Origin: an uncultured Candidatus Binatia bacterium
Lineage (GTDB): Bacteria; Desulfobacterota; Binatia; UBA9968; JAJDTQ01
DNA length: 64,000 nt
NCBI GenBank assembly: GCA_965242525.1
Contig: OZ251459.1
Coordinates: forward strand, 32,001-96,000
Reading direction: 5' to 3'
Shown here one piece after another: positions 25,893 to 53,507 of the stretch. Below the pieces are notes generated by a model. The model ran no database searches. It was given only the letters and a program-made list of their open reading frames with translations, and was not told where the DNA came from. Numbering within the stretch: position 1 is the first letter of the stretch; the number at the start of each line of letters is the position of its first letter. The position numbers were made by a program, and so were the translations under genes.

Positions 25893-25901
25893 GCGGCGCT
25901 C

Positions 25902-33293: not shown

Positions 33294-33401
33294 TTACGCC
33301 ACATGCCATTGTGAGCGTCGGTTCCGGGGGTGTCAAGGCGAAGGACCGGAGCGCGCCGGAGGCAGGACGCGACCGCCGCCTCGGCTCGACCCTCCGGCCT
33401 G

Positions 33402-33467
33402 TTGACTCCAAGTCCACGATAAGGCGATAATGGAATCAACAATTCCATTTTGCGACCTGAAATGGAA
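33402..33467 (+). promoter_or_regulatory. Promoter with overlapping palindromes upstream of AAA-DUF4143
   Basis: TTGACT-18bp-GATAAT; ATGGAAT/ATTCCAT and TCCATTT/AAATGGA inverted repeats. Confidence 0.45.
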
Positions 33468-34643
33468 CTGATAAGTCGATTCTTCCAAGTCCCGGACCGG
33501 AGTTTCTTTCTGTTCGGTCCCCGCGGGACCGGCAAGTCCACGTGGTTGCGTCACCGGCTGCCCGACGCCTTGCACCTCGACTTGCTGGACCCGGAGTCCC
33601 ATCGCAGCCTGAGCGCCCGTCCCGAGCGCCTCCGGGAACGGCTTGCGGGTTCGCCCGGCAAGACGACGGTGGTCATCCACGAGATACAGCGCGCGCCGGA
33701 GCTGCTCACGGTGGTCCACGCCCTGCTGGAGGAGCCGTCGCCGCCCCGGTTCGTGCTGACCGGGTCCAGCGCCCGCAAGCTCCGCCGCGGCGGCGTGGAC
33801 CTGCTGGGGGGCCGGGCGGTGCAGTGCACGCTGCATCCCTTCATGGCCGCGGAGTTGCCTGCCTTCGACCTGGAGCAGGCGTTGCGCATGGGCCTGTTGC
33901 CCCTGGCGGTGGGCGCGTCCGAACCGGCGGCCGTCCTCGACGCATACGCGAGCCTGTACCTGGACCAGGAGGTACGGGCCGAGGGGATGACCCGCAACGT
34001 CGGCGCGTTCACCCGGTTCCTGGAAGCCGTCAGCTTCTCCCACGGCGCGCAACTCAACGTCGCCGCGGTGGCCCGGGAGTGCCAGGTGGAGCGCAAGGTG
34101 GTGGCCGGGTACGTCGGTATCCTGGAGGACCTGCTGATCGCCTTCCGGCTGCCGGTCTTCCGCAAGCGCGCCAAGCGGGCCACCGCGACCCACGAGAAGC
34201 TCTACCTGTTCGACGCCGGCGTGTTCCGCTCGCTGCGCCCCAGGGGACCCCTCGACCGCCCCGAAGAGATGGACGGGCAGGCCCTGGAAGGGCTGGTGGC
34301 CCAGCATCTGCGGGCCTGGGCCGCCTATTCCCGGCAGGACGCGGGCCTGTTCTTCTGGCGCACCCGCGCCGGCGCCGAGGTGGACTTCGTGGTTTACGGC
34401 GAGTCGGGACTCCAGGCTTTCGAGGTCAAGAACGCCGACAGGGTCCATTCCCGCGACCTGCGGGCGCTCAGGACCTTTCGCGAGGACTACCCCGAAGCGG
34501 AAACCGCCCTGCTCTACCGCGGTCGAGAGCGCCTGCGCATGGACGGGATCTGGTGTCTGCCGGTCGCGGAGTTCCTGTGGCGGATGGCGCCGGACCGGGA
34601 CCTGCTGGATGTCCCTTCCTCCCGCGCCGGAAGATCAGGGTGA
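33462..34643 (+). CDS. AAA_14 ATPase with C-terminal DUF4143 (PD-(D/E)XK-like)
   Basis: GPRGTGKST, VIHEIQR (Walker B D->H), LTGSSA, KLYLFDAG, EVDFV..FEVK. Confidence 0.9.
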   Translation: MELISRFFQVPDRSFFLFGPRGTGKSTWLRHRLPDALHLDLLDPESHRSLSARPERLRERLAGSPGKTTVVIHEIQRAPELLTVVHALLEEPSPPRFVLTGSSARKLRRGGVDLLGGRAVQCTLHPFMAAELPAFDLEQALRMGLLPLAVGASEPAAVLDAYASLYLDQEVRAEGMTRNVGAFTRFLEAVSFSHGAQLNVAAVARECQVERKVVAGYVGILEDLLIAFRLPVFRKRAKRATATHEKLYLFDAGVFRSLRPRGPLDRPEEMDGQALEGLVAQHLRAWAAYSRQDAGLFFWRTRAGAEVDFVVYGESGLQAFEVKNADRVHSRDLRALRTFREDYPEAETALLYRGRERLRMDGIWCLPVAEFLWRMAPDRDLLDVPSSRAGRSG

Positions 34644-34680: not shown

Positions 34681-37600
34681 TCAACCGGCAGAAACGCCCC
34701 CGAGCGGTCCCACGCCGAGGACTTCCACGAGCTCGGCGACCACGGCCACGGCGTCCTCGTCCTCCTCCGCCAACTCGATGGGGGCGAACTCGCGGTTGAC
34801 GGGTTCGAGCACGATCCTGACGTGCCGCCAGCCGTTTTCGTCCTCGGCCTTCTCGCTGCGATAGCGCTTCACCGTGAAGCGAAGGCCGGTGTCCGGATCG
34901 ACCGCGTCGCGTAGCTGCACGAGCACCACGCGCCCCTGACGGGAGCCGGTCACGGGATGGGCGAACAGGCAGTAGGCGCCGTCGGGTATGGCGGGTTCCA
35001 TGGACCGTCCGACGACCTTCGCCGCGAACATCCCGGGACGCAGCGAGCGGTGTGTGTCGAGTTCCACCCAGTCCCATTCGGGATCGTCGGGTACGGATCG
35101 AGGGTTGCCGAACGCGCCTGCGGCCGCCTGGAGCGGCGCCAGCGGCACGCAAGTCACGTAGCGTGCAGCGGCCGTCGGCGTCACGAGCCGCAGCGTCCGT
35201 TCGTTCGCCGCCGCGGCGTCGTGGAACCAGGAGCGGTCGTCGCGCACGCGGTTGCGGACGTCGAGCATGTGGAGGTAACCGGCCAGGCGCCGGAAGTGCT
35301 GCACCATGGCGTTCTCGTCGTGGAGGTCGTTGGCGGCGACCTCGATCACGTCGTAGCCGTGGTTGCGCAGCCAGTCGCGGATGGCCCGGTCCCTTTCCGC
35401 GGTTTCGGGGTTGCCGTGGAGGGGGCGGCTCAGGCCGTCCAGGTAGATGCACACGCCCTCGTCCGGCTCGTGGTCCTCGGCGCGGTAGATCACGTCCGGC
35501 GTGGTGGTCCCCAGCGTCCGGTCCAGCCGCACCTGTTGGTTGCGAATTCCCTCGCCGAACCCCGCGGCGCGCAGCAGGTGGCGCAGCCGCGTTTCCGCGT
35601 CGTTGACGGGCATGGCGTCGGCCGCGGGCCTTTCCGCGGGTTGCAGCGGCGGGACGGGGTGCTCGAACGCGAGACGCGCTCCCCACGCGTCGAGCCGCTC
35701 ACCGGCGATCCGGCGATGGAGGAGATGGTGGTAATAGGCGTTGCGGAAGTTCTGGAGGCAGTCGATGCAGGAGGACTCGCACGCCCCGGCACAGTTCTCC
35801 ACCACATCCCGGGCCGCTCCCACGACTTCCGCGAACCGCTCGCACAAACGGTCGAGGAGGCCGGAGCCTCCGGGCATGGGGTCCCACAGCATCGCGTCCA
35901 CCTCCGGGCGCTCCACGTGGCCCATCACCAGTATCTGCAAGTCGTCCACGTGCATGTCCAGCACGTGGGTCGCGCCCAGTCGCAACGCCTCCAGCACGCT
36001 GTACCCGGTGGCGGCGTCGTCGCACGCGGGCAGCGAGAAGGCGTCCGCGGTCACGTCGGCGTAGAAGCCGATGTCTTCCGGGGCGCGCCGGCACCTTTCG
36101 GTATGGGACTTGCGGAACTCCTCGCGCTGGCGCTCGGACGAGAACGGCGAGACGCTTTGGCCGCACACCACGCAGACCGGGTAGCCGAACACTCCCCGTT
36201 TCCTGATGGAAGTCGAAGCTCCCACGTTGACGAGCCGCATCCGCACCCCCCGCCGCAACGACATGGGCCGTGTCCCCCAACGGTACGCTTGTCCGCCGCC
36301 GTGCTGGCCCAGCTCGAGTCCATGGACGGCGACGCCGAGTTGGAACCGCAGGTCCTCTTCGTCGGAGATGTGCGACGTGTGGACGAGGTCGGCGTCGCAG
36401 ATGGCCATGGTCCGCAGGGCTTGTCCGTTGAGGGAGGAACTTGCGTCCCCAGAGGCGGGCTTGACGGCTTGCCGTTCCGCGGAAACTTCGTAAACCGGCG
36501 TCTCGGCCTGCTCTTCGCCGAGGTCCCGGTGGAACCGCCGCGCTACGAAACGGTGGCCGTTGGCGTAGATGAGGTTGCCGGGAACGTATTCCCGCAAGGC
36601 CGCGGCAGGGGGTCGAGGCAAGCGGAAGTCCCTGGCGCCGGCGTGCCAGAAGGGGATCTCCGCCCATCCCACCACCGTGCCGACCTCGAGACCGTAACCG
36701 GGCAGGAAACCCTCGGCCGCCAGCACGTTGAAGGTGTTGGAGTCGTCGTGCCCCTCGGCCTGGCTGCGCCGCCGTTCCTGGCCCTTGAGGCGCTTCACGA
36801 ACCTGTCGCAACGGCGGAACAACGCTTCGTCCTCGGGGTCGAGGGCGCCTTGCCGCTCGCGCCGCTCGTCGAGCCGCGTGATCTGGTCCATGGCCCAACG
36901 CAAGCGCCGGCGCAGACGGGAGACGACGCTTTCCAGATGGTCGGCGAACGTGTCCACGTGGCCGCGGAGCGCCGCGGGTTTCGTCACGTCCTCGTCCTCG
37001 TCCGGCCAACCCTGGTCGAAGACCCGCCCCACGTCCGCGGCCAGGTCGGTTGCGTTGTCCCGCACGAGCTCGCGCAGGGCGCCGAAGTCGAACGGCGCGG
37101 TGCGCAGTTCGCCGTCCCGGAACAGGTACGGCTCCACGCGCCCGGGCAGGCAGCCGTCCAGGACGCCGCGGACCGCGTGGCGTTCCGTTTCCGGGCGGTT
37201 CGGGTCGCGGCCGTATCGGTGCAGCGCGCCGATGACGGTAGCGTGGACGTGCTTGGCCACCATGAACTCGTTGCGCAGGTTGAAGGCCGGGGGATCGATC
37301 CTGCCGGCGAGCAGCTTGGCGGGTTCGGCGAAGTAGGCGCGGTCATGGGACACGGGGCGGCAGTAGGTGACGTCCACCGCCATGCGATGGCGGCGTCCCG
37401 CCCGCCCGGTGCGCTGCCAGTAGTTGGCCGGCAGCGGCGGCACGTTGCGCATGAGCACCGCGTCGAGCTGGCCGATGTCGATGCCGAGCTCCAGCGTCGG
37501 GGTGCACACCAGGCAGTTCACCGCGTCGGTTGCGCCCTTGAACAGGTTCTCCAGGCGTTCGCGCTCGTCGTCGGGAACCATGGCCGTGTGCTCTTCCGGG

Positions 37601-40600
37601 CGCAGCATGGCGTAAACCCCGTCCAGCAGTTGCAGGTCGTAGTGGTCGGGGTCTTCCGGCGCCCATTCCAGGACGCCGTCGCAGCGCCAAGCGGGGCAGC
37701 GGTCGTAGGGCAGGTCCCGCGTGGTGGTGCGGCGGCAACTCCGGCAGCGCCGGACGCCCCGGTTGGGGTTCAGTCCCAGCCGGTCCGCGTTCACCTGGTA
37801 AACGCCGCTGACCCGGGGCAACGGGCGCCCCTTGGACCCCTTGAGGCGCACCGGCGACAGCAGCTTGCGTTCCACCAGGAAGGCGAACAGGCTTTCCAGG
37901 AACGACGGGACGGCTTCCCGGGGCACGCCCCACTTGCCGGCCATCTGGCGCAACGTGGTGTCGCCGCCGTCGCTCAGCCATTGGGTGACCAGGTTGGGCT
38001 TCTCGTGCGGTTCCCGGCGCAGCTTGGTGGCGTTGGGGGACAGGAACCCCGGAAGGTAGCCCTGCTGGATTTCCCGGTCCCCTTCCTGCCACATCTTCGT
38101 GAAGATCTCGTACTCCGGGTCGTGCAGGGCGCCCCTGCGCCGCAGGTAGTCGAGCACGCTGGCCACGCCCTCGCGCAGGCGTTCCGGCGCGAGGCGGAGG
38201 TCGTGGGCGTGTTCCTGTATCCACGGCGCGGCAGCGTCGAGGCCCCGGTATTCGACTTTCATCCGTCCCCAGGGTTCGAGGCCCAGGGCCTGTCGAGCCG
38301 ACAGCGTCACCTCTCGCAGTACCTGGAAGCGCAGGTACTTGCGGCGCTCCTGTGCGTGGCGGTCGCCGCCCCCTTCCTGTCGGGCCACCTGCCAGACTTC
38401 CGGGATCAAGGCTCGCGACAGCGTTGCGTCGGCATCCAGCAGGTCGTCGAGGCAGGCGGTGAGGTCGCCCACCGAGCGCGGCTGGGCCTTGATGCCCTCC
38501 GCCATCAGCGCCCGCAGCCGGAAGCGTCGGGCGTGGTCCTTCATCCAGCCGGCCTGGAACGCCGCGTCCTGGCGGTTATCGCAGAACACCAGCAGGCGTT
38601 GGCGTTCGGCGTGGTGCACCATGTCCTGGGTGAGGACGTGGACGTCGGCCACGTTGATGGCGCGCACCGGTCGCGCGGGTTCGCGGTATCGTCCAACGCC
38701 GGAGCGGCCCGCCGCGCTGCACGACAGGCAACTGGCGAGTTGCCCCGGGTTGTCAGCCTTCGAGTGCACCGCGTGCAGTCGGACCGCGGCGCCGGACTTG
38801 CCGCAATGAAGGCAGCGGGAGGCCGGCAGGGCATGGGCGGCGCCGCAGTGGCGGCAGAAGTGGAGCGCCGCGGTGCGGCGGGCGAGCGGCGTTTCGTCGG
38901 GCGCTTCGTCGTCATCGTCGCCGGCGCCGATGAGGCGGTCCGTCAGAACCACCCGCTTGCCCCCGAGGCTCTCTTCCAGCGGTTCCCACCACGAGCCCGC
39001 GGCCCCGGCCTCGCCGCCGCCCGGCCGCTTGCCGGTGAACAGGAAGTCCTTGAGGAACGCCACGTAGTAGTGCTGTCCGCAAGTGGTGCAGGTGGTGACC
39101 GGGAAGTGGGCTTTGCTCTCGCCTGACTCCCGGATCGCGGTTGCGTCCTCCGCGGCAAGCCAGAGCTTCGGGCCGTCCCACGCCTCCGGGAACGATACCA
39201 CGGCGCCGCCGATGCCGCGCACGAACACGTGGGCCACGGGCCGCAACAGGGGTCGGCCCTCGCGGCGCGCCGCGGCCCCAAGGGTCAGCCAGGCCAGGAC
39301 TTCCGCTTCGGTCACCACCCGCCCCAGGCGTTGCCCCAGGGCTTCGGCCAATTCGTCGAGGGCCTTGGGGGTCGTGAGCGCTTCGTTCAGGCGGAAGACC
39401 AGTTCGTTCCGGGACAACGCATCGTACAGGCGCCGGGGCCAGCCTTCCGGCCCGCCGGCCGCATCGCCATCCAGCTCCCGTCCGGACAGCGAGCGGTAGG
39501 CTCCGCCCACGCCGTCGCCCGACGCCTCTTCGTCTTCCACCGCGCGAACGCAGCGGTCGAGGATCCCGGCTGCGTCCCCGTCGGGTCCGGGCGGTACGGA
39601 ACGGGATTCCGCCCACACTTCGGATTCGTAGTCCTCCTCCACGGTGACCACCGCTTCGGAGGCCACGCCGAAGAAACGCGCGGCGAAATGGCGAGCGGCC
39701 TGCGGGTCTTCGCCATCGACGATGGTGGCGGAAGTGGCGACACAGGTGGTGTGGCCGGGGTCGGCGTTGCAGAACGCGCGCAGCCGCCGGATCAGGCAGG
39801 CCGTTTCCGCGCCCAGGGCGCCGGTGAAGGTGTGGGCCTCGTCGAACACGAGGAAGTCCAGCCGCGCCCCGTCGAACAGTTCCACGTCCTGCTGGCGCGT
39901 GAGCAGCAGTTCGAGTTGCTTCACGTTGGTGAGCAGGATCCGCGGTTGCCGGCCCGGGGCGCGCATGACCTCCCGGGAGCAGACCTCTTCCGCGGGATGG
40001 ACCGTCTCGCCCCTGCCTTCCCCCTGCGTCCGTCGGAGTCGGGCTTCGTAGTCGGCCCGTGACGAACCGGGTCCGAGCCGGACGCCGGCCACTTCCGTCT
40101 CCCGCTCCGGCGTCTTGCCCACGTAGATGCCGAAGGGGATGCCCGCGCCCGCTAGCAGCCCGCGCAGGCGCATGAGTTGATCTTCGGCCAGGGCGTTCAT
40201 GGGATAGACGACGACCGCGCTGACCCCGGGCGGCGCGCCGTCGTCCCGCAGGCGCAGGCATTGGCTGACCATGGGGTAGAGGAAGCACTCGGTCTTGCCC
40301 GAGCCGGTGCCGGTGGAGACCAGGGTGGTCCGCCCTTGGACGATGGCGCGGATGGCGCGTTCCTGATGGCTGTACAGGTGGGTGACGCGCCGCGGGATGC
40401 GCTCGCGCAGGTGGGGGTGGAGCAGCCCTTCGTTCACCAGGGCGTCCACCGAGGCGCCTTCCCGGAACGGGCGCGACAGGCTGACGTAAGGCCCCTTGAG
40501 CAGGGGCGAGCGGCGGGTCTCGTCCAGCGACAGCAGCGCCCGCATCTGTCCGTGCAGTCGCGGGTCGGCAAAGGGATAGGCGGTGAGCTGGTAGCGCAGG

Positions 40601-40647
40601 AAGCTCTTGACGACGTTCTCTGTGTAGGCAATGGGGTTCAGCGCCAT
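34681..40647 (-). CDS. YprA/DUF1998 DEAH helicase fused to a Vsr/DUF559-like nuclease and an S24 peptidase domain
   Basis: TGTGSGKT, YPMNALAEDQ, DEAH, TSAT, TPTLELGIDIG, QRTGRAGRR, several CxxC, DUF1998 (DPMPGGSG...CESSCIDCL), PDVIY..IYLDG..H..RDRAIRDWL..GY, then AAAG / GRSMEP / TVKRY. Confidence 0.9.
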   Translation of the reverse strand: MALNPIAYTENVVKSFLRYQLTAYPFADPRLHGQMRALLSLDETRRSPLLKGPYVSLSRPFREGASVDALVNEGLLHPHLRERIPRRVTHLYSHQERAIRAIVQGRTTLVSTGTGSGKTECFLYPMVSQCLRLRDDGAPPGVSAVVVYPMNALAEDQLMRLRGLLAGAGIPFGIYVGKTPERETEVAGVRLGPGSSRADYEARLRRTQGEGRGETVHPAEEVCSREVMRAPGRQPRILLTNVKQLELLLTRQQDVELFDGARLDFLVFDEAHTFTGALGAETACLIRRLRAFCNADPGHTTCVATSATIVDGEDPQAARHFAARFFGVASEAVVTVEEDYESEVWAESRSVPPGPDGDAAGILDRCVRAVEDEEASGDGVGGAYRSLSGRELDGDAAGGPEGWPRRLYDALSRNELVFRLNEALTTPKALDELAEALGQRLGRVVTEAEVLAWLTLGAAARREGRPLLRPVAHVFVRGIGGAVVSFPEAWDGPKLWLAAEDATAIRESGESKAHFPVTTCTTCGQHYYVAFLKDFLFTGKRPGGGEAGAAGSWWEPLEESLGGKRVVLTDRLIGAGDDDDEAPDETPLARRTAALHFCRHCGAAHALPASRCLHCGKSGAAVRLHAVHSKADNPGQLASCLSCSAAGRSGVGRYREPARPVRAINVADVHVLTQDMVHHAERQRLLVFCDNRQDAAFQAGWMKDHARRFRLRALMAEGIKAQPRSVGDLTACLDDLLDADATLSRALIPEVWQVARQEGGGDRHAQERRKYLRFQVLREVTLSARQALGLEPWGRMKVEYRGLDAAAPWIQEHAHDLRLAPERLREGVASVLDYLRRRGALHDPEYEIFTKMWQEGDREIQQGYLPGFLSPNATKLRREPHEKPNLVTQWLSDGGDTTLRQMAGKWGVPREAVPSFLESLFAFLVERKLLSPVRLKGSKGRPLPRVSGVYQVNADRLGLNPNRGVRRCRSCRRTTTRDLPYDRCPAWRCDGVLEWAPEDPDHYDLQLLDGVYAMLRPEEHTAMVPDDERERLENLFKGATDAVNCLVCTPTLELGIDIGQLDAVLMRNVPPLPANYWQRTGRAGRRHRMAVDVTYCRPVSHDRAYFAEPAKLLAGRIDPPAFNLRNEFMVAKHVHATVIGALHRYGRDPNRPETERHAVRGVLDGCLPGRVEPYLFRDGELRTAPFDFGALRELVRDNATDLAADVGRVFDQGWPDEDEDVTKPAALRGHVDTFADHLESVVSRLRRRLRWAMDQITRLDERRERQGALDPEDEALFRRCDRFVKRLKGQERRRSQAEGHDDSNTFNVLAAEGFLPGYGLEVGTVVGWAEIPFWHAGARDFRLPRPPAAALREYVPGNLIYANGHRFVARRFHRDLGEEQAETPVYEVSAERQAVKPASGDASSSLNGQALRTMAICDADLVHTSHISDEEDLRFQLGVAVHGLELGQHGGGQAYRWGTRPMSLRRGVRMRLVNVGASTSIRKRGVFGYPVCVVCGQSVSPFSSERQREEFRKSHTERCRRAPEDIGFYADVTADAFSLPACDDAATGYSVLEALRLGATHVLDMHVDDLQILVMGHVERPEVDAMLWDPMPGGSGLLDRLCERFAEVVGAARDVVENCAGACESSCIDCLQNFRNAYYHHLLHRRIAGERLDAWGARLAFEHPVPPLQPAERPAADAMPVNDAETRLRHLLRAAGFGEGIRNQQVRLDRTLGTTTPDVIYRAEDHEPDEGVCIYLDGLSRPLHGNPETAERDRAIRDWLRNHGYDVIEVAANDLHDENAMVQHFRRLAGYLHMLDVRNRVRDDRSWFHDAAAANERTLRLVTPTAAARYVTCVPLAPLQAAAGAFGNPRSVPDDPEWDWVELDTHRSLRPGMFAAKVVGRSMEPAIPDGAYCLFAHPVTGSRQGRVVLVQLRDAVDPDTGLRFTVKRYRSEKAEDENGWRHVRIVLEPVNREFAPIELAEEDEDAVAVVAELVEVLGVGPLGGVSAG

Positions 40648-40731: not shown

Positions 40732-41967
40732 TCACCAGCGCCACAGGGCGCTACAGGGTACGGCGTGCAGCCGCTCGCCGAACGGCACCACCGAACCGCC
40801 TGCGTACAGGACGATGCCGCGGACGAAGCGGTCCCCCGCGGCCTGTGCGAGGTCCCGGAGACCCGTGAAGGCGCGCTCGGAGACCGCGCGAGTGGCCTTC
40901 ACTTCGACCCCGACCACCGAACCGGCTCGGTCCTCCAGCACCACGTCCACCTCCCGTTGGTCGTGGGTCCGGTAGTGGAACAGCCGCGGGCGTCGTCGGC
41001 TCCAGCCGGCCTGCTTGAACAACTCCATGATCACGAAGTTCTCCAACAGGCGGCCCGTCGCCTCGTCCGCGGCGCGCCCGGGCGCGCCGCCGAGGTTGTT
41101 CAGGTGCGCCGCCAAGCCCGTGTCGGTCACCAGCAGCTTCGGCGCCTTGGCCATCCGCTTGCCCACGTTGCGAAACCACGCAGGAAGGGAGTGCGCCAGG
41201 AACGCTCCGGCCAGCAGCGCCAGATAGCGTTTGAGGGTGGTCTGCGGCAGCGCCAGGGTGCGGGCGAGGTCTGCGTGGTTCGCCAGTGTGGCCTGCCGTG
41301 CCGCAACCAGGGTGAGCAGGCGCGGCAGTTCGCCGATCCCCTCGACGTTGGCCAAGTCGCGGACCTCGCGCTGCAGGACCGTCTCCACGTAACTCTCGTA
41401 CCAGGCGCGCCGTCGGTGCACAGTGCGGCGCGTCATCATTTCGGGATAGCCGCCGCGGACCGCCCGCGTGAACAGGTCGGCCTGGGATACCGCGGGAGGC
41501 GGCGTGGACGGCAGGTCCGCGTCGAAGACGGCGTCCACGAAGCCTTCCACCGCGCCTTCCAGTTCTCCTTGGGAGAACGGCCACAAGGTGTCGATCTCGA
41601 TGCGGCCGGCGAGCGCCTGCGACAGGTCGGGGACCACGTTGACCGCGGCCGACCCGGTGAGCAGGAAGCGGCCCGGACGGCGGTCGCGGTCGATGGCCAG
41701 CTTGACGGCGCGGAACAGCGCCGGCACGCGCTGTACCTCGTCGATGACCACGGGGCCGGGTTGACCGGCGATGAACTGGTCCGGGTCCGCGCGCGCCGCA
41801 GCCAGCGTCGCCGCATCATCCAGGGTAAGGTACGAAGCTCGATGCGGACCGTGAGCGATTAGCTGCGCGAGAGTGCTCTTGCCGGACTGCCGCGGCCCCT
41901 GGATGAACACCGCCGGGGTATCCGCCAGCGCCTCCAGGACAACGGTCTCGATATTCCTCCGCTGCAT
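40732..41967 (-). CDS. AAA_14 ATPase with DUF4143
   Basis: GPRQSGKST, IDEVQR, LLTGSA, RGGYPE, DTGL, LLENFV, EVDVV..VEVK. Confidence 0.92.
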   Translation of the reverse strand: MQRRNIETVVLEALADTPAVFIQGPRQSGKSTLAQLIAHGPHRASYLTLDDAATLAAARADPDQFIAGQPGPVVIDEVQRVPALFRAVKLAIDRDRRPGRFLLTGSAAVNVVPDLSQALAGRIEIDTLWPFSQGELEGAVEGFVDAVFDADLPSTPPPAVSQADLFTRAVRGGYPEMMTRRTVHRRRAWYESYVETVLQREVRDLANVEGIGELPRLLTLVAARQATLANHADLARTLALPQTTLKRYLALLAGAFLAHSLPAWFRNVGKRMAKAPKLLVTDTGLAAHLNNLGGAPGRAADEATGRLLENFVIMELFKQAGWSRRRPRLFHYRTHDQREVDVVLEDRAGSVVGVEVKATRAVSERAFTGLRDLAQAAGDRFVRGIVLYAGGSVVPFGERLHAVPCSALWRW

Positions 41968-42168
41968 GGCTGAATTTTAGCCAGCTAGTGGTTGATTTGC
42001 AACCAACGACGTCTTCACACACGAGAGGATCCGTCCCCGGGACAGATGTTGTGACGCTTGGGCTGGCTGCCTGTGCTGCAAGGTTTGCCACAAGACTTTT
42101 CAGTTTGGTATAAAATGAAATCAAGACAAGTTTCGAGTTCGGTCATGTCAAGGATGGAGCAAGGGACG

Positions 42169-43302
42169 ATGGCGGATGAGACCTGCATTGCGGCGAACGT
42201 TGTCCGGCTGCGGCTGGACCGGGGGCTGACGCAGGGGGCTCTTGCGGAGCGGGCCGGGATTTCGCGGGTGGCGCTTGGCCAGATCGAGCGGGGAGCGGCC
42301 GTTCCGCGGGCGCGTACCCTCGCTGACTTGGCGAGAGCGCTGGCAGTCCCGGTGGGAGAGTTGGTCACCCCTGTCCGGCCTCTCGAAAGCGTCCGGTTTC
42401 GCGCCCGGACGCGGGTCCCGGGGCGGGAGCAGATCTTGGCAGTGGTCTCCAAGTGGCTGGGAGCCTATGTCGAGCTGGAAACCGACCTGAACGACCGCTC
42501 TCCGTTCCGCTTCGAGGCCGCTGCAACGGGCGGCGGAAGTCCCTCGGAAGTTGCGCGAGCCGCTCGTCGGGCGGTCGATCTCAGACCGGAGGAACCCGTG
42601 CGGGACATCTGTGGGTTACTGGAGGAAAACGGCGTGAAGCTCCTTCTCCTCGAGACCACTCGCGATTCCTTTTTCGGGCTGAGCGTGGGGAAGGGTGACG
42701 GTGGCCCCGCGGTGGTGGTCAACACTTGGAGTCGGATCTCGGTGGAGCGCTGGATCTTTACCGCCGCGCACGAACTCGGTCACTTGCTGTTGCATCCTTA
42801 CGAGTACCGACGAGACGCCACCGAGATGCGGGCGGAGCCGGAGCGGGGTGCCGACGCCTTCGCGGGTGAGTTCCTGATGCCGGAGACGGCGTTTGCGGAA
42901 GAGTGGGAGGCGACCCGTGGACGCTCCCTGCTGGCGCGTGTCCTCAAGGTCAAGCGGATCTTCCGGGTGAGCTACAAGACCGTGCTCCATCGGTTGGTGG
43001 AGTCGGGGCGGGAGACGTCCGCGGTCTGGCCTACGTTCCAGGGCCAGCACCGCAGCTACTTCGGCCAAACGCTTCGCAAGACCGACGAACCTGAAGCCAT
43101 CAGGAAGGGTGAGTTCGCGTGGAACTGGAGCCGCTCGGGAGAACCTGCCAGCCTCTCCGAGCACGACTTCGTCGAAGATCGGTTGTCACGGCTCGTGAGG
43201 CAGGCAGTCGAGAGTGAACGCATCTCGCTCGGACGCGCCGCCGAAATCCTGGGTCTCACGAGGGAGCGGATGAGAAAGCAGGCAGGTGAGTGGGCCAAGT
43301 AG
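42169..43302 (+). CDS. XRE-family HTH fused to ImmA/IrrE (DUF955) metallopeptidase
   Basis: LRLDRGLTQGALAERAGISRVAL..IERG HTH; FTAAHELGH (HExxH); ADAFAGEFLMP; C-terminal ISLGRAAEILG. Confidence 0.92.
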   Translation: MADETCIAANVVRLRLDRGLTQGALAERAGISRVALGQIERGAAVPRARTLADLARALAVPVGELVTPVRPLESVRFRARTRVPGREQILAVVSKWLGAYVELETDLNDRSPFRFEAAATGGGSPSEVARAARRAVDLRPEEPVRDICGLLEENGVKLLLLETTRDSFFGLSVGKGDGGPAVVVNTWSRISVERWIFTAAHELGHLLLHPYEYRRDATEMRAEPERGADAFAGEFLMPETAFAEEWEATRGRSLLARVLKVKRIFRVSYKTVLHRLVESGRETSAVWPTFQGQHRSYFGQTLRKTDEPEAIRKGEFAWNWSRSGEPASLSEHDFVEDRLSRLVRQAVESERISLGRAAEILGLTRERMRKQAGEWAK

Positions 43303-43814: not shown

Positions 43815-43895
43815 TCCGCGGACTTCCGGGTAAACGCCGTCGTTGGCTCTCTGGCAAGAGGGCTGCGTAGAGCGGCGTCCCTGTTTCGGGCGGCG

Positions 43896-46800
43896 CTACT
43901 CGAACAGTTTCTTCTGTCCGCTTTTCGCGGACGGTTTCGAGTCGTAATCCGGTTCGGGTTCGGCGGCCTTTGGCAGGGGCTCGGTTCCCGGGGCCGGGGC
44001 GTCGCGGCCGCTTCGGCTCCGGTACTCGGCGTCGTCCATGAGCTTGCGGGCGTAGAGGGTGTCCAGGAGCAGGAGGTGGGTCGTCTCGTTGAGATGGCCG
44101 CGGGTGCGGAGGTCGTCCACCATGGTCCAGTAGGGCGCTTCGTACAGGACCTTCCCGACGCGGACTCCGACCAGGAGCGCCACGTAGCCGTGTTCGCCGA
44201 CCAGTTCGCGGACGAAGTCGTCGGTGAGAAGGTCGAGGCAGTCCTCTCCGTCGGTGACGCGCCGCTGTGCCAGATCGACGAGGAGTTGGGCGTAGCCGTG
44301 GACGCCGAGGAGGTTGCGGGCGTGCAGGTGGCATTCCCGCCAGGATTCCTCCGCGCCCTGGGCAAGCTGCCAGTCGTGGAAACGGGAGCCGAGCTGGCTG
44401 GCCACGGGCTGCGGATGCCTGGCGCGCTCGTCGTGCCCGAGGCCGTAGTCGGCGAGGCGGAGGGTTTCCGGGAGCATCCAGCCTTCGCCGTGGTTCTGGG
44501 AGAGGAAGGCGTCGATGCCGCGCTCGCGGTCGCCGCCCGCGGCTTCGACCTTCGCTTGGAGGTCATGGAAGGCGACGAGGGTCAGGACGGTGTGGCGGAG
44601 TTCGGGGTCCTTGTCCTTGTCAACGCGCCAGAATCCCTTGGGATCCAGTTTCCCGGAATGGAATGCACCAGCAATTTCCGATTGTGGGAGGTCGCAGTGC
44701 CGCAGGATGTGGCGCAAGTCTTCCTCAACGAGGCCGAACGCTGTCGAAACCAGCAGGTCCAGGATGATGTTCATCCTCAAGCGTTCACGACCTGTCAAGG
44801 CTGGTCTCATTCGCTCGGTATAGGAAGTGGAAGATGACGACTCGGTTCCTCGCAGGACCGTGGATAGGGGCTGGATATGACGCATTTCGGCAACGCTGCA
44901 TACCGGCAGGGGAGTTTCTTCGATGATGAACCAACTCGTATGCAGCCCCGAGAAACGCACGCGAAGAGAGAAGTCATAGACGAAGGAGTTCAGGATAGTG
45001 CCAAGCGGAAGGCATTGGTCTGCGGAGCAGTTCAGAACTCCGATGGAGTGTCCGCAAGGCACACCGGCTAGTGGTGAAACGATCATCGTCCGAGTATTCG
45101 TCGATGACGTGATGTCCATGAGCGCGATCTTCGGTTTCCGCACCGCGTAGAGGTAGTCGGTACAGTGTGCTCGATCCATCAGGTACTGCGGCTCGATCTG
45201 CTTGCGCTCCCAGGGAATTTCCCGCCAAACGGAACCGCGGCCTTTGCCGCTGACCCAACCCTTCTGGCTGGAATCGAACTGGCCGATCATTCGGCCTTCG
45301 TAGAACGGCAACGCTACGTCCCTGACCCCTCCCTCTTCCCGGGCGTCGTTGCCATCCCCTGACAGAGTAGGTGCGGGCGGGACACCCACGGTCCAAGGGG
45401 GCGTTGCGTACTCGGAGGTAGTTGTAGGTGGGTCCCGGTCCTGAATCCATGCGTCCCCTTCCCGCGACAGCACCACCCCCGCTGGGATGCTTGCCCGTGG
45501 GATTGGCAGCCGGTCATACGGCGGCTGTGCGCAACGCAAGCGCCAGTCGGTACGGGCTGCGTCGCCGGGTTTCAGCAGGTGGCCATGCACGAAACGGGCT
45601 TCGGCTTCGCGGCGTTCCGGGTCGGCGGTGGTGTCGAACAGCCACTCCTCCAACTCGATTTCCGCCTGTTCCGGCTGGGAAGGATCGGCGCCGAGTTCCG
45701 CCCACAGCTCCCCGATCGGCCGCCAGTCGCCGAGCAGCCAGCGGCTGTACTCGTCGGGGCGGTAGCCCTTCGCCTCCCACTGCGGGCGGGGCGGGAAGAG
45801 GCGGGAGTCGCTGGTCATGTTGAAATCGCCTTGAGAATAACGAATGCCCCAGCCGTCCGGGCCATCGTCGCCGAGCAGCACAGCGTTGGCGTAGATCTTC
45901 TCCAGGATCTCCAGGTCGCGCTTCGACTGGATTTCGAAGATGGCGTGGCTCCTAGGGCTGAAGCGCTCGACCTGCGCCCGAGTGTAGGGGATGGTAAGGT
46001 GCTCGGCGCGCTCCCAATCGTCGAGGTTGCGGCGCATGAAGGCGGTGCGGATGGTCTCGGTGGCGGCGCCCTTCTCAACGATGATTGGGTTGAACTTGTA
46101 GCTCCTGTGGATCGGGAAGACCTTGTCGCGGTTCTCGATGCCGAACAGCCATTCCCATCGGCAGTGTCTGAGAAACAGTGTGCGCAGCGCGCCCGTGCCG
46201 AGGTCCGAGTAGAGGCCGGAGGGGACGACGAATCCGAGTCGACCGCCTATGCGAGACAAGGCATGTGCCTGTTCCAAGAACAGCTTGTATGTGTATGCCT
46301 TGCCTTTGCCTCGATGCACGAAAGGATGTGTTGTATCTGCAAAACTGAATGAACGAACTCTGGCCTGTCGCCACCGATCGTGAAATCTACTGTTCTCTCG
46401 GCTGTGAACTATAGTGTATAGTGCAACGTTCTGATTCTCGCCTGTTCCAAGGGGATCGCCGAACGGATTCGCAACATGTTTCATCCAGTTCGAATCATTC
46501 GCAAATCTACTATTGTAGTCGAGCCAACTGCATTCCACAGAGACTTCGTTAAAATAAGCTCTCTGTTTTTCTAACGCTTCCTGTTTTCCATAGGAGCGAT
46601 AGAGCGGATCGATATTTGAAAAGTATTCCTTGGAACTCGGTTGAAGTGTTTCCCACGGCGGATTGCCCAGCATCGCGTCGAAGCCCGATTCCGGCGCCCG
46701 GAACACGTCCGGGAACTCCAGCTCCCAATGGAAGAAGCGCATCTCCGCGGCGACCCGTCGGGCCACGTTCCGGGTCTCGTCCCGCGGTTGGGCGAAGGTC

Positions 46801-49553
46801 GTGGGGAGCGGGGCGCGGTCCAGTTCGTCCGCGGGCCAGAACCAGCAGGCGCACCACAGGTCCATGGCGTTCTTGAGCGAGCGCCAGGCCGTTGAACCCA
46901 GGAAGTCCCGCCGGTAGAGGTGCGCGCGCTCCCGGGCGTCCTGCACCGGCAGGGCGTGCATGTCCGCCAGCACGTTCAGCGCCTCGTCGTGGGCGCGTCC
47001 GGCTTCCGTCAGCAGGTCTTCCCGGAACAGGTCGGCGCCGGCCAGGAAGCGCTTCAGGTCCGGGGTCAGGGTGTCCTTCGTGAACTCCTTGAGGGCCTTG
47101 CCGCGGGCGTCTTTCCCGAAGTGCGTTCCGTTGCCGTGGTTCTTGTCGCCGCCTTCGCGGTTCTTCCACGCCATGACCGGGTAGTGGGCGAACTGGTCGA
47201 ACCACGCGCCGACGAGCGCGTTGCCGCACTTGACCTTGTGGTCCAGGAAACCGAACGGCAGGGTGCGGTCCATGGTCTCGATCCAGAGGGACAGGCGGCA
47301 GAGCTCCACCGCCAGCGGGTCGAGGTCCACCGCGTAAAGGCAGCGTTCCACCACGTGCCGGCGCAGCACCGCCTTGAGACGCGGCTCGAAGCGGTCGTCG
47401 TCGGGGCGGCAGGGGATCAACTCGTCGCTCAGGCCTTCGTCCTGTTCGTCCCGCTTGTCCCGAAGGCCCAGCAGGTGGACCAGGGCCCGGTCGCCGTCCG
47501 GTTCGATGCGTCCGTGGTGTTGCAGCGAGGCGTAGAGCGCGTCGGTGAGGAAACGCAGCGCGGCCAGCGGGAAGCTGCCGGAACCGCACGCCGGGTCGCA
47601 GACCTTCAGGTCGAGGATCCGCTCCGGGAGCTTCGGCGTCCAGTGCGCGGGCGGCGCGTTGGCGTCCGGCGTCCCGTCCTCGTCCACGGGCGGGTCGTAG
47701 GCCAGCGGGCGCAGCGTGCGCTGCACCGTCGGAACGGCCAGGCCGGGACGGGTGTAGAAGCTGCCCGAACCCTTGCGGGTGCCGCCCCATCGCACCAAGT
47801 ACCACTCGCCGGGCAGGACGACCCGGGACACGAGTTGCTTCGCCTTGGCGCCGAGTTGGGCGTCGAACGCGAGTCGGCGCGCCGAGGCGTCCCGGCCTCC
47901 GGCCTTGTGGGGTTTGACCAGGCCCGCTGCCTGCGCCGCCCGTCGCGCCCAGGTCTCCGCCCGGGTGCGGTTGCGTTGCCGCTCGTCGGAGCCGTCCGCG
48001 GTGTCTGCGGTCTCGTCCGGCTCGCCGTCGCGGCCCTCGGAAGATCCGTCGTCGTCTTCCGCCCGTTCCCCGACGGGAGCGTTGGCGGTCTCCGCTCCGT
48101 CGTCCGCCTCCACGCCTTCTTCCGCGGCTTCCGCTTTCGAGTCGCCTGCGAGGTTGGCGAACAGCGCCTTGAGGGCGGCGTCGTCCATGGCTTCCAGGCG
48201 CGAGAGGGGCAGCGCCGGCTGGTCGCCCACCGCCAGGAAGACCACCGGGTCGCCGGCCGGCGCGGTCTTCAACTCGTAGTCCAGCAGCCCTTCGTAGAGG
48301 ACGCCGATGTATTCGGACGAGAGATCGGAAAAGTCCACGGGAACGCGCGCCTGCTTGCTGCTCCGGCCCTGGCGAATGCGGACCGTGGTGCGGGTGAGCA
48401 GGCACAATATCCGGTAAACGTCCCGGTCCGGCATCGTGGTCTCGCGCTCGAAGCACGCGTTCTCGTAAACGGCCAGCGCTTGGGAGAGGCCGTCCGTTTC
48501 GCCCGCGGCCTCGCTCGGGGCGAACAGTTCGCCGCCGTAATCCTTCACCGGCAGGTCCGGGAAATGGGACCCCTGCCGCACGAGCCGGAACAGCGCCAGG
48601 ACCCGCGGCCAAGCGCCGTAGCTCTCGGCCAAGGCGCCGGGGTGGAGGGCGTCGCGTTCCAGCCGTTCGAGCAGGCCGTTCAGGCCGTAGCTTTCGTGGT
48701 AGAGGGCGTTGTCCCGGGGCAGCAGGTCGCGGGACTCCGCGAACAGGACCACCACCAGCCGCATGGCCACCCGGCAGGCTGCGCGGTAGATGTCCGCGGG
48801 AGCCGCCGCGGCGCACCGCTCCTTCAGCGCGTCGCCGTGGCCCGAGATCAGTACTTCCACCGCTTTGCGCACCCGCTCGCCAAGCACCTCGGACAGTTCC
48901 GCCTGTCCCTTGCGGGTGTCGCGGACGGCTTGCAGGAGCGGCGTCGGGGCGTCTTCGACCGCGGGAGTCCAGAGTTCCGGGCACAGCAGAGCGCGCAACG
49001 CCGTTACCTGCGGGGCGAGCTCGCCTTCCTCGAACCACAGGTCCAGGTCCCATTCGCACCACGCGTCGTAGTCCAGTCCGGCGAACAGCAGCCGCCACTG
49101 GCGTCCGTTGGTCACCAACGCGAGATGCTCGTTGCCGGCGCGGAGCCAGCCGAGCACCCGGCTGACCACGAGGCGGCTCCTGCCGATGCCCAGGCGTTTC
49201 TCGCCGTCCAGGAACACCGGCAGCCGCCCGCCGCGCCGGCCCTCCCACAGATGGCGGGGCTTGACCGTCTCTCCCGTAACGGCGCGTCGTCCCCACTCCG
49301 GCGCCACCCGGCTGCCGCGGGACCAGGCGCCGGTGGAGGCGTCCAGCCCGCAGACCCGTTCCAGCACGAAGGCGACGAACTCCGAGGCGTCGCCTTCGCC
49401 GTTCAGCAACGCTCCGGCGCGCTGGCGCAACTGGCCCTCGACATACTCGTGGAGCCGCGGGACGCCCCGGGAAAGCGCCTGCAACCGCGCGCTGTCCAGC
49501 AGCAGGCCCCCATGGCGCAGGTCTCCCCAGCAGTCGGTCAGGGTGTGGTCCAT
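43896..49553 (-). CDS. Large type IIG/Eco57I-like N6-adenine methyltransferase (DrmMI-like)
   Basis: VTNGRQWRL, IGVLYEGLL, RKGSGSFYT, DPACGSGSF, FHWELEFP..GNPPW, PFYEGRMIGQFD. Confidence 0.9.
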   Translation of the reverse strand: MDHTLTDCWGDLRHGGLLLDSARLQALSRGVPRLHEYVEGQLRQRAGALLNGEGDASEFVAFVLERVCGLDASTGAWSRGSRVAPEWGRRAVTGETVKPRHLWEGRRGGRLPVFLDGEKRLGIGRSRLVVSRVLGWLRAGNEHLALVTNGRQWRLLFAGLDYDAWCEWDLDLWFEEGELAPQVTALRALLCPELWTPAVEDAPTPLLQAVRDTRKGQAELSEVLGERVRKAVEVLISGHGDALKERCAAAAPADIYRAACRVAMRLVVVLFAESRDLLPRDNALYHESYGLNGLLERLERDALHPGALAESYGAWPRVLALFRLVRQGSHFPDLPVKDYGGELFAPSEAAGETDGLSQALAVYENACFERETTMPDRDVYRILCLLTRTTVRIRQGRSSKQARVPVDFSDLSSEYIGVLYEGLLDYELKTAPAGDPVVFLAVGDQPALPLSRLEAMDDAALKALFANLAGDSKAEAAEEGVEADDGAETANAPVGERAEDDDGSSEGRDGEPDETADTADGSDERQRNRTRAETWARRAAQAAGLVKPHKAGGRDASARRLAFDAQLGAKAKQLVSRVVLPGEWYLVRWGGTRKGSGSFYTRPGLAVPTVQRTLRPLAYDPPVDEDGTPDANAPPAHWTPKLPERILDLKVCDPACGSGSFPLAALRFLTDALYASLQHHGRIEPDGDRALVHLLGLRDKRDEQDEGLSDELIPCRPDDDRFEPRLKAVLRRHVVERCLYAVDLDPLAVELCRLSLWIETMDRTLPFGFLDHKVKCGNALVGAWFDQFAHYPVMAWKNREGGDKNHGNGTHFGKDARGKALKEFTKDTLTPDLKRFLAGADLFREDLLTEAGRAHDEALNVLADMHALPVQDARERAHLYRRDFLGSTAWRSLKNAMDLWCACWFWPADELDRAPLPTTFAQPRDETRNVARRVAAEMRFFHWELEFPDVFRAPESGFDAMLGNPPWETLQPSSKEYFSNIDPLYRSYGKQEALEKQRAYFNEVSVECSWLDYNSRFANDSNWMKHVANPFGDPLGTGENQNVALYTIVHSRENSRFHDRWRQARVRSFSFADTTHPFVHRGKGKAYTYKLFLEQAHALSRIGGRLGFVVPSGLYSDLGTGALRTLFLRHCRWEWLFGIENRDKVFPIHRSYKFNPIIVEKGAATETIRTAFMRRNLDDWERAEHLTIPYTRAQVERFSPRSHAIFEIQSKRDLEILEKIYANAVLLGDDGPDGWGIRYSQGDFNMTSDSRLFPPRPQWEAKGYRPDEYSRWLLGDWRPIGELWAELGADPSQPEQAEIELEEWLFDTTADPERREAEARFVHGHLLKPGDAARTDWRLRCAQPPYDRLPIPRASIPAGVVLSREGDAWIQDRDPPTTTSEYATPPWTVGVPPAPTLSGDGNDAREEGGVRDVALPFYEGRMIGQFDSSQKGWVSGKGRGSVWREIPWERKQIEPQYLMDRAHCTDYLYAVRKPKIALMDITSSTNTRTMIVSPLAGVPCGHSIGVLNCSADQCLPLGTILNSFVYDFSLRVRFSGLHTSWFIIEETPLPVCSVAEMRHIQPLSTVLRGTESSSSTSYTERMRPALTGRERLRMNIILDLLVSTAFGLVEEDLRHILRHCDLPQSEIAGAFHSGKLDPKGFWRVDKDKDPELRHTVLTLVAFHDLQAKVEAAGGDRERGIDAFLSQNHGEGWMLPETLRLADYGLGHDERARHPQPVASQLGSRFHDWQLAQGAEESWRECHLHARNLLGVHGYAQLLVDLAQRRVTDGEDCLDLLTDDFVRELVGEHGYVALLVGVRVGKVLYEAPYWTMVDDLRTRGHLNETTHLLLLDTLYARKLMDDAEYRSRSGRDAPAPGTEPLPKAAEPEPDYDSKPSAKSGQKKLFE

Positions 49554-49731
49554 GGCTCGTCAGCGTCTCTTCGACCAAGCGCGGGGTCCGGCCCGCTCAG
49601 AGCGGTTGTCCGGGGTCGGGATGAAGGCGTCGCCCTGTCGCACGGATATTGAAGTCATTCCGTTCAGCACGTAAAATCAGGATGGGCTTTTAGTCCGGCG
49701 GCAGAGGAAATTGGCTCTTCCGGCTTGCCCG

Positions 49732-53100: not shown

Positions 53101-53507
53101 GCCTTCAGCAGCGGCATGAGCTGGTAGTCCTCCACGCGCACGCCGCCGTGGAAGGGGCTGGCGAGGGGCTCGCGGTTCAGCGGGCCGGAGCCGTCCGGGT
53201 CCAGGTAGGGCGACAGCGCCGTCCAGCGCGCCGCCCGCAGGAGCGCGTCGAACTCGCCGGACGGCATGGGGTCCCGGCCGGCGTCCGGCAACGCGGTAGG
53301 CTCCAGGAGAGGGGGCTCATGTTCGATCTCCCACAGCAGCCGTTCCGCGGGCGGCTCGTGCAGGTCCTTGTACTCCACGTGCACCAGGTGCAGCCGCCCG
53401 GAATCGCCGTCGAACGGTTCTACTGCGGCCACCACGCCGAGCCGGTTGCGCACGGTGGCGATCATGCCGGCCCGAGGGACGGCGTATGGGGCGGCCGGGA
53501 CGCTCAT
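50181..53507 (-). CDS. SNF2-family helicase (DISARM DrmD-like)
   Basis: LADDVGLGKTVEAG, IVDECH, LSATPHNG, TDAASEGLNL, WNPSRLEQRNGRLDRYGQ, coiled-coil C-terminus. Confidence 0.9.
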   Translation of the reverse strand: MSVPAAPYAVPRAGMIATVRNRLGVVAAVEPFDGDSGRLHLVHVEYKDLHEPPAERLLWEIEHEPPLLEPTALPDAGRDPMPSGEFDALLRAARWTALSPYLDPDGSGPLNREPLASPFHGGVRVEDYQLMPLLKALRMPRVNLLLADDVGLGKTVEAGLILTELLLRRRIRRVLVLTPASLRQQWRDELWEKFSLRFDVVDRQGVERLRRRLGMDANPWRSFSRIVASYHYLRQPDVREQFLAACQTPDGSPHLPWDLLIVDECHNLMPSPFGEDSGLCETLRLAAPRFEHRLFLSATPHNGHTRSFTGLLEMLDPVRFTRTSEMTPAMRARVDDVVVRRLKRHIDQPPGRTDAGTRHEREEDPVPGTAPAPRFCQRRPPEALTLRTELREAGLVAAFDAFRKAVRRLVAQGDRPRRRAGSFAVEILGKRLLSCPTAFAESWRRARQGFADESAASEAALTAAERSLRQETGDDRETQQREATAATVVGAWLKNFADHVQDEIAGIERALDALGFVLDGPPVVRQTPGVDTRFDALTALIERLLRTSGGFRADERLIVFTEYKTTLDYLARRLAERYSPEHVLTLFGSGGAEGMNDTDRENVKAAFNDPDDPVRVLVATDAASEGLNLHRTARYLLHYDCPWNPSRLEQRNGRLDRYGQARDVTVHHFFSATDPDLRFLDHVVRKADEIRADLGSVNELFDRATHRRLIGGEDAARVRADLDAGLRAVLGAASMDADARVSLGREAEGEAALLEVLAAEIDLDPQALGDTLETALTTSDSGRPQLRAAAQPGFYRMAQPDLRGWRDVIDEAVRLPVHGGGQGPMPLLAFSAEPFIQRLGRLSVFLPRRDARLLHLAHPLMRRALGLLTRRRYPGEQQVSRWTVRLGAVPADAEAVVLLSVEELAVNELRETFHRWVRTLAFPVRNGDLGEPLPHVPARSRRGARDAADPAHRERAREVLEDVRNGLRTWLRGYGTQVTGRLRRQLAVDGEAARKREDERYRQRQGEVSTLIEQSTATRLNREIEALGQRQRQGELFDATERLAEMERSLEEKERELKRRLAHYEEIREQLQQERARILDRLLPARFALAGDAHVFPVAIEVRLPETG

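Follow-up and report, generated by a model that had tools for sequence, protein, structure and literature searches.

A helicase-nuclease gene with a LexA/UmuD-type tail

The window analyzed here, a stretch of 64,000 nucleotides from an uncultured Candidatus Binatia bacterium (assembly GCA_965242525.1, contig OZ251459.1, positions 32,001 to 96,000), encodes a YprA/DruE-like helicase-nuclease that ends in a peptidase S24 module of the LexA/UmuD type. The corresponding open reading frame (ORF; 34681..40647, minus strand, stop included) is uninterrupted over 1988 codons, carries a GGAGG sequence approximately 8 nt 5' of its ATG, and features a G+C content at third codon positions (GC3) of 0.88. 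From the N-terminus onwards, and with all coordinates on the minus strand, the protein comprises a superfamily 2 (SF2) helicase core with large inserts (residues ~90-1137, 37237..40380; Pfam DEAD 93-181 and Helicase_C 1024-1086, TIGR03817 1027-1137), the MrfA Zn-binding domain (MZB, formerly DUF1998; residues 1553-1631, 35755..35991; PF09369 with 36.9 bits, cut-off 24.2), a Vsr-type PD-(D/E)xK nuclease domain recognized by fold search and conservation (residues 1680-1794, 35266..35610), a helical linker (residues 1795-1819, 35191..35265; two helices in the AlphaFold2 (AF2) model, model residues 146-166), and the S24 module (residues 1819-1980, 34708..35193). The latter includes the conserved lead-in LRLV..RY.TCVPL.PL, was recognized by Pfam PF00717 together with a fold match to LexA, and has the same boundaries as the copies residing on other enzymes. 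Peptidase_S24 (PF00717) covered residues 1870-1971 with 27.4 bits in the whole protein and 31.2 bits in the last 339 amino acids (cut-off 23.3), and none of the PADLOC models, including the DruE profiles, reached these last 339 amino acids.

The initial annotation had described this protein as a defence helicase ending in a nuclease and an intact S24 domain, which was borne out by the ORF, Pfam, fold, and conservation analyses. Every motif quoted there was present in the translation at checked coordinates, namely PDVIY (1717-1721), IYLDG (1734-1738), HGNP (1744-1747), and RDRAIRDWL (1752-1760) for the nuclease, and VPLAPLQAAAGAFG (1834-1847), VVGRSMEPAIPDG (1878-1890), and TVKRY (1925-1929) for the S24 domain. 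The span assigned to both domains, 34681-35560, corresponds to residues 1696-1988 and thus starts 16 residues inside the nuclease domain. The predicted scissile bond, Ala1843-Gly1844 (AAA/GAFGNP, the slash marking the cut), is encoded at 35116..35121 (codons checked), the predicted nucleophile Ser1882 (GRSMEP) at 35002..35004, as deduced from conservation and from profile alignment onto the GMSM/GDSM motif of LexA, and the predicted general base Lys1927 (TVKRY) at 34867..34869, as deduced from conservation.

An AF2 model of the last 339 amino acids was built on an alignment of 48 relatives (mean predicted local distance difference test score, pLDDT, of 85.6) and compared with structural representatives using VIA-align and Foldseek. 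Model residues 31-145 (protein residues 1680-1794) resembled I-Bth0305I (3r3p; Z 11.1, root mean square deviation (rmsd) 2.5, 98 aligned residues), and this nuclease half was also similar to NGO0050 (3hrl, Z 8.7) and to the E. coli Vsr protein (1cw0; Z 8.3, rmsd 2.9, 98 aligned residues). Of the earlier description as DUF559/Vsr-like, the Vsr-type assignment was therefore retained by fold (Z 8.3-11.1), but DUF559 was not reported by Pfam at E ≤ 0.1 when the tail of the helicase-nuclease was scanned, so that the nuclease call rests on the fold and on the conserved acidic and His residues. These residues, D1718, D1737, H1744, D1753, and E1769, were each found in 121 of 121 sequences of the homologue alignment introduced in the next section, and the results support a nuclease domain of the Vsr type that is predicted to be active.

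The S24 half (model residues 182-331, protein residues 1831-1980) was found to be most similar to LexA (3k2z with Z 12.2, rmsd 3.1, and 123 aligned residues; 1jhc with Z 11.6), followed by lambda cI (Z 10.6) and UmuD' (Z 10.0). Foldseek likewise ranked LexA first (E 5e-6), and its top 30+ matches were all LexA, cI, and UmuD, so that the tail modelled as an S24 domain, as previously suggested for it. The cleavage-site loop (model residues 191-200) reached a pLDDT of only 55, which fits the flexibility of the cleavage-site region described for LexA-type proteins (PMC9926225). Sequence identity to LexA in the structural alignments was low (17-27%); a phmmer search of PDB sequences with the last 339 amino acids returned no match at E ≤ 10, and a profile of the 48 sequences matched LexA and UmuD weakly (E 0.05-1). 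In the profile alignment, GRSM was placed on GMSM/GDSM, the catalytic-Ser motif in E. coli and M. tuberculosis LexA, and the domain's end on the LexA 'LLPENSEFKPIVV' stretch. By profile, fold, Ser-Lys dyad, and Ala-Gly site, the tail fits family S24, with actual self-cleavage being predicted.

The module thus shares with LexA, UmuD, and lambda cI (MEROPS S24, PF00717) the fold, the Ser-Lys dyad, the Ala-Gly site, the TVKR motif, and the flexible cleavage loop. Its spacing amounts to 38 residues from the site to Ser and 45 residues from Ser to Lys; the respective values for LexA, UmuD, and cI are 35-37 and 37-43 residues. The cargo is clearly different. In the known proteins, it is a repressor domain that binds DNA or a subunit of a polymerase, whereas the cargo of the window module is a helicase-nuclease of 1843 residues, and relatives of the module are located on HsdR, type ISP/IIG, PLD, and HNH enzymes, either C-terminally or internally.

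Conservation and spread of the S24 module

A search with residues 1650-1988 yielded 1429 proteins of 1093-3479 amino acids (E ≤ 0.001, among 8000 scored candidates), of which the best 120 full-length homologues were aligned with the window protein (n = 121); a precomputed PF00717 tag was present in 108 of these 120. As expected from the initial annotation, the residues of the dyad and of the Ala-Gly site were conserved: Ser1882 occurred in 121/121 sequences, Lys1927 in 119/121 (with Arg in the other two), Ala1843 in 120/121, and Gly1844 in 116/121, while the nearby Ala1842 and Phe1846 were invariant (121/121 each). The same residues were retained where the module resides on varied enzymes, with values of 79/79 for Ser, 78/79 for Lys, 79/79 for Ala, and 79/79 for Gly among the 79 genome loci described below, and of 114/115, 113/115, 103/110, and 102/110, respectively, among 50%-identity representatives covering each position. 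This conservation is far beyond chance. Since nucleophile, base, and scissile Ala-Gly have been retained by selection on unrelated cargo, we consider it likely that the module cleaves itself.

The initial annotation treated the S24 domain as a feature of one helicase, a view that did not hold. A HMMER search with the last 339 amino acids against 1.84 billion representatives resulted in 2045 matches at E ≤ 0.001, many of which covered only query residues ~170-330, with 50-60% identity, and lay at the termini of proteins that varied widely in length. Forty such module-only matches were submitted to Pfam for the identification of partner domains. The most frequent partner was the type ISP specificity domain, accompanied by Eco57I/N6_Mtase (10/40), followed by MmeI-like, HsdR, HNH, and Schlafen/AlbA_2 partners (two each, with HsdR represented by pieces), and by Methyltransferase-HNH, PLD, LlaJI, another YprA, and a ResIII helicase (one each); the remaining 17 featured S24 only and were mostly fragments.

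In species-representative genomes, 147 stretches encoding a relative were found; 79 loci were retained and classified by Pfam on 21 representatives, BLAST clustering, and, for frameshifted cases, tblastn. HsdR with a C-terminal module dominated (38 loci), followed by YprA-Vsr-S24 (15), type ISP/IIG-like methylase-TRD-S24 proteins (11), and HsdR in which the inserted module separates the HSDR_N nuclease from the SWI2/SNF2 motor (8); the rest comprised one other helicase, one HTH repressor, and five short frames that stayed unclassified. AAAG, GRSMEP, and TVKRY are all intact in the inserted modules. In the four HsdR loci examined, hsdS was detected in L035, L044, and L064 and hsdM in L035 only, and neither of the two was seen in L023.

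Across hosts and phyla, the modules are 50-66% identical to that of the window protein. In a quick tree, which comprised 93 of 97 modules after four with partial coverage had been dropped and which left many forks open (Shimodaira-Hasegawa-like approximate likelihood ratio test, SH-aLRT), the HsdR, ISP, and YprA copies were intermixed, requiring 28 label changes versus a minimum of 12. The inserted HsdR copies, on the other hand, formed a single clade (support 97). At locus L043 (5295-16683), another HsdR lies approximately 3 kb downstream of an HsdR with C-terminal S24; it shares 83% identity with the inserted class but is devoid of the insert, a comparison that shows the HsdR insert to be a clean and recent domain gain. 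The S24 tail is a portable, optional module on many restriction and other DNA-targeting defence enzymes.

To what extent the tail is present varies between genomes, as illustrated by two samples of 401 genomes each, which include related genomes and therefore provide counts only, not independent observations. In the phylum of the window, a match was obtained in 18 genomes, with YprA-Vsr carrying S24 in two and lacking it in four; in a second phylum, a match was obtained in 32 genomes, with S24 present on YprA-Vsr in nine and absent in five. A second S24-tagged protein was encoded in 5/9 of the YprA-S24 genomes of the second phylum versus 18/392 of the others, and also in genomes G401 and G403, which had not been preselected for it. 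The source genome of the window belongs to this category as well: its second S24-tagged enzyme (2347 amino acids; G000:C1:2421063-2428106, corresponding to L005:9064-16107, plus strand) combines a PLD nuclease, a SNF2-type helicase, an N6-methylase, and a type ISP specificity domain; its S24 module is located C-terminally and is 58% identical to that of the window protein. The gene for this enzyme is followed by a HATPase_c gene encoding 727 amino acids.

The source genome also encodes RecA (550.9 bits) and ClpX (659.2 bits). With TIGR00498, no full-length LexA was detected in the assembly, which is 98.96% complete; the highest-scoring match (74.4 bits, cut-off 110.95) is a UmuD-like frame of 139 amino acids, and a repressor-like HTH-S24 gene of 226 amino acids is also present. 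Because no full-length LexA was found, the S24 tail might be among the few readers of the RecA signal in this genome.

No published description of an S24 module on such enzymes was encountered in the literature searched, which comprised openly accessible main texts and, for HsdR combined with S24, the 10 best-ranked of 253 papers. The terms S24, LexA, peptidase, and self-cleavage do not occur in a 2025 review on restriction-modification (PMC12707154), 'S24' appears in Millman et al. 2022 as a table number only, and the main text of the study describing ARMADA (bioRxiv 10.1101/2025.09.15.676423), the defence system discussed in the last section, never mentions S24, LexA, peptidase, or protease. 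As far as these searches reach, the use of S24 on enzymes, rather than on repressors or UmuD, is not in print.

Possible role of the module in restriction alleviation

Our favoured reading, adopted tentatively on the basis of sequence comparisons, is that an ARMADA type I-like helicase-nuclease carries an optional C-terminal LexA/UmuD-type S24 module that would provide built-in restriction alleviation. RecA filaments formed on single-stranded DNA (ssDNA) upon damage or during recombinational repair would accommodate the module in the filament groove, and the docked module would cut its own chain at Ala1843-Gly1844 by means of Ser1882 and Lys1927. The cut would shed the 145-residue S24 domain and leave a helicase-nuclease of 1843 residues ending in ...Pro-Leu-Gln-Ala-Ala-Ala-COOH. 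This new C-terminus would resemble latent degrons of the LexA type, leading to removal of the enzyme by ClpXP or to its being disabled otherwise. DNA-cutting immunity would thereby be off while repair makes unmethylated self DNA, which would amount to a self-contained form of restriction alleviation.

Whether the enzyme is armed or disarmed by cleavage was left open in the initial annotation, and the evidence obtained here leans to disarming. Provided that cleavage takes place, we give the outcome 'off' an even chance. It is favoured because the great majority of the hosts are restriction enzymes that translocate and are guided by methylation, for which the hazard lies in cutting of the chromosome after repair; because a cut in the inserted HsdR form must part the nuclease from the motor; and because of the ...Ala-Ala-Ala-COOH end that the cut would leave, together with the presence of ClpX, the degron step itself being inferred. 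The N-terminal fragment of LexA ends in Val-Ala-Ala. Latent ClpXP C-degrons beside the cut site have been described for LexA-like proteins (PMC5742171, PMC10584840), and it is well established that self-restriction can be avoided by proteolysing HsdR once DNA has been damaged (PMC12707154; bioRxiv 2024.10.21.619520). In the alleviation by ClpXP or Lon that is reported for EcoKI and for HsdR of P. aeruginosa, the cutting subunit is likewise proteolysed when unmodified chromosomal sites follow damage or repair (PMC12707154; bioRxiv 2024.10.21.619520; PMC11109961). There, however, a separate cellular protease recognizes the translocating enzyme, whereas the first cut proposed here would be made by the tail of the enzyme itself; moreover, the alleviation described for P. 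aeruginosa HsdR is recA-independent (bioRxiv 2024.10.21.619520).

Regarding the trigger, the positions compared were defined by the pocket for RecA Phe203 (L2 loop) described for LexA, UmuD, and cI (PMC9926225). Two of the three pocket positions are kept, namely F1874 (Ser-8) in 121/121 and F/Y1924 (Lys-3) in 120/121 of the full-length homologues, and the third is Ala for Leu. Activated RecA (RecA*) as the trigger of cleavage appears slightly more probable than not. RecA filaments are the usual co-protease of the S24 family.

Several points weigh against the proposed off-switch. Cleavage is predicted for every member by computation alone. At Ser-6, where LexA, UmuD, and cI have Leu, Ala was found in 119/121 sequences, and the acidic patch before Lys is out of register, with Arg at Lys-4; because of these two differences, docking to RecA is not assured, and RecA-independent cleavage has been described for some LexA-like proteins, such as IrvR (PMC7101444). 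The C-terminal fusions, that of the window included, lose only the S24 domain, so that 'off' then needs the putative degron or a dimer contact, and the release of an autoinhibitory tail ('on') fits the C-terminal architecture, taken alone, equally well. No dependence on methylation is known for the PLD, HNH, and Schlafen hosts, and alleviation may be a poor fit for some hosts. Finally, the genome counts come from related, non-independent genomes, and the inserted HsdR form, being a single clade in the quick tree, represents one evolutionary event, not eight.

The same C-terminal architecture underlies the strongest rival, according to which the S24 tail would restrain the Vsr nuclease or the helicase until cleavage is triggered by RecA-type filaments on intermediates of phage replication or recombination, freeing the active enzyme at the site of infection. 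The module directly follows the nuclease domain, C-terminal fusions would keep the whole enzyme after loss of the tail, and UmuD represents a generally known precedent for activation by S24 cleavage (UmuD-RecA structure, PMC9926225); related DruE enzymes, furthermore, are reported to act on ssDNA-containing intermediates in competition with RecA (PMC13192584). An arming switch of this kind nevertheless gives no account of the HsdR form in which nuclease and motor flank the module. The hosts, moreover, are mostly methylation-guided restriction enzymes, in which discrimination between self and foreign DNA is already achieved and for which the known difficulty is self-inflicted damage following repair (PMC12707154), and ARMADA was reported as a direct defence without abortive infection by Bell et al. 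2025. We regard arming as rather unlikely.

Less probable still, and in our view distinctly unlikely, is self-cleavage without RecA, serving as a maturation or turnover timer or responding to a change in the enzyme, for instance, stalled translocation. Besides the precedent of the LexA-like IrvR within the family (PMC7101444), the Ala at Ser-6 and the acidic patch unlike that of LexA point in this direction, as does the fact that no full-length LexA was found in the 98.96%-complete genome, in which a classical SOS circuit may be absent. Against it stand the retained pocket residues F(Ser-8) and F/Y(Lys-3), and the 50-66% identity of modules across enzymes and phyla is more easily explained by a shared conserved partner such as RecA than by unrelated host contacts. 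A domain that does not cleave and serves only for dimerization or for docking to RecA filaments, pairing two enzymes or bringing them to ssDNA, is very improbable, because a pure binding domain needs none of the near-invariant Ser, Lys, Ala, and Gly on unrelated hosts, even though LexA, UmuD, and cI have dimerizing C-terminal domains (PMC9926225), DruE purifies as a dimer (PMC13192584), and type I and ISP enzymes are generally known to cut once two motors meet.

How the chromosome is protected from its own DNA-cutting immunity after damage and repair is understood for few type I systems, where separate proteases are involved. If the proposed damage-triggered off-switch is true, the DNA-damage signal would be coupled to immunity directly at the post-translational level, and S24 would for the first time be seen to act as a switch in proteins other than repressors and UmuD. 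In its widest form, the proposal is a widespread class of self-destructing type I, type ISP/IIG, and ARMADA enzymes in which a LexA-like cassette would read RecA-ssDNA, cut between Ala-Ala and Gly, and thereby present an Ala-Ala-COOH degron to ClpXP, so that alleviation would be hard-wired; one signal would shut off several systems per genome, and this could work even in bacteria without a LexA regulon. In this generality, we consider the proposal doubtful. Assays of ARMADA and type I systems would be affected, for example, in the use of C-terminal tags or of DNA-damaging conditions, and the module could supply a portable, damage-triggered protein off-switch.

Host defence system and neighbouring genes

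The helicase-nuclease had been regarded as a generic YprA defence helicase, an assignment that was replaced, as its gene neighbourhood fits ARMADA type I or, more precisely, a type I-like arrangement with reversed gene order, as judged from sequence. The system shares with ARMADA type I, as presented by Bell et al. (2025, bioRxiv 10.1101/2025.09.15.676423), a YprA-family helicase with DUF1998 that is closest to DruE (best PADLOC profiles DruE3 with 2.6e-99 and DruE1 with 1e-97), a C-terminal Vsr nuclease predicted to be active, and an adjoining pair of a BrxHII/DrmD-like SNF2 helicase and a PglX/DrmMI-like methylase. The DrmD/BrxHII-like SNF2 helicase is encoded at 50181..53507 (minus strand; NCBIfam DISARM_DrmD 646.3 bits, cut-off 610; PADLOC DrmD 1.3e-189, BrxHII 6.9e-65, RapA 3.8e-45), and the type IIG/DrmMI/PglX-like N6-adenine methyltransferase of 1885 amino acids at 43896..49553 (minus strand; PADLOC REase_MTase_IIG 1387 bits, DrmMI 5.1e-118, PglX 2.7e-5; Pfam Eco57I). 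Unlike in the published type I, the order in the window is SNF2-methylase-...-YprA, with extra HTH-M78 and AAA_14-DUF4143 genes located between methylase and helicase; a reversed gene order is mentioned for ARMADA by Bell et al. (bioRxiv 2025.09.15.676423). Among homologous loci, many of which are short, the methylase gene lies beside the helicase gene in L011, L013, L016, L018, and L077, and the SNF2 gene was found in L020 (6/15 in total).

The system was filed as ARMADA type I-like because the GajB-RelE marker of type II is absent. No GajB-like helicase fused to a RelE-like domain follows YprA, the next gene being the convergent AAA_14-DUF4143 gene (33450..34643, plus strand; ORF and Pfam). 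A second AAA_14 + DUF4143 ATPase gene lies just upstream of the helicase gene (40732..41967, minus strand; PADLOC candidate PDC-S01 5.6e-164, Pfam), so that the helicase gene is flanked by two genes of this type. Druantia types I-III were rejected, because the helicase matches DruE but 0/11 neighbouring ORFs match a Dru partner, such as DruA-D, DruM/F/G, or DruH, in PADLOC. DISARM class 1, which combines a DrmA helicase and a separate DrmB (DUF1998) with DrmD, DrmMI, and DrmC, was likewise rejected: DrmD and DrmMI are present, but the DrmA match is weak (1.9e-14), DUF1998 is fused, and a PLD gene was not seen. Two ORFs, 33333-34448 and 24210-28256 (both minus strand), were dropped on GC3 and replaced by 33450-34643 and 25902-28211 (both plus strand). 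The SNF2 and methylase genes are separated by a gap of ~630 nt (49554-50180), in which the only ORF (49732-50601, minus strand, 289 amino acids) has no family match; it fails the GC3 filter, overlaps the SNF2 gene, and was not accepted as a gene.

The HTH + M78 (IrrE/CapP-like) gene between the methylase and helicase genes (42058..43302, plus strand; Pfam HTH_3 and Peptidase_M78; PADLOC RmrA 5.7e-34, capP 3.1e-16) is a possible regulator. In CapP/CapH and IrrE/DdrO-type M78 regulators, a damage-responsive protease is wired to a defence system, and a comparable HTH-M78 gene is located in the window operon; these regulators act on transcription via a separate repressor, whereas the S24 tail would take effect on the enzyme after its synthesis. 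A copy of the HTH-M78 gene with 50% identity occupies the same position in L016 (3274-4419), and HsdR-S24 has an M78 gene just upstream of it in two of the four type I loci examined (L023:4270-5166 and L035:5308-6450). The M78 genes beside S24-tagged systems could be a second damage-responsive layer or a coincidence.

Stretches of lower G+C content (0.575-0.65 compared to ~0.69) were observed at 14001-18000, 42001-48000, and 58001-62000. The second of these spans the methylase and HTH-M78 genes, suggesting a separate acquisition for part of the defence island. The presence of recN in the same window, as reported in the initial annotation, was confirmed (9367-11085, minus strand; TIGR00634 519.9 bits, cut-off 407.85), the gene adjoining those for NAD kinase (11159-12031) and tRNA-Ala (9168-9243). 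At the other end of the window, the ORF for GrdB (glycine/sarcosine/betaine reductase B; 61300-62770, minus strand) stops at a TGA in the context TST-U-GTS. Reading this TGA as selenocysteine adds ~100 further residues, and the ORF is probably a selenoprotein gene, as deduced from its sequence; a gene for glycine reductase component B is located at 62995-63990.

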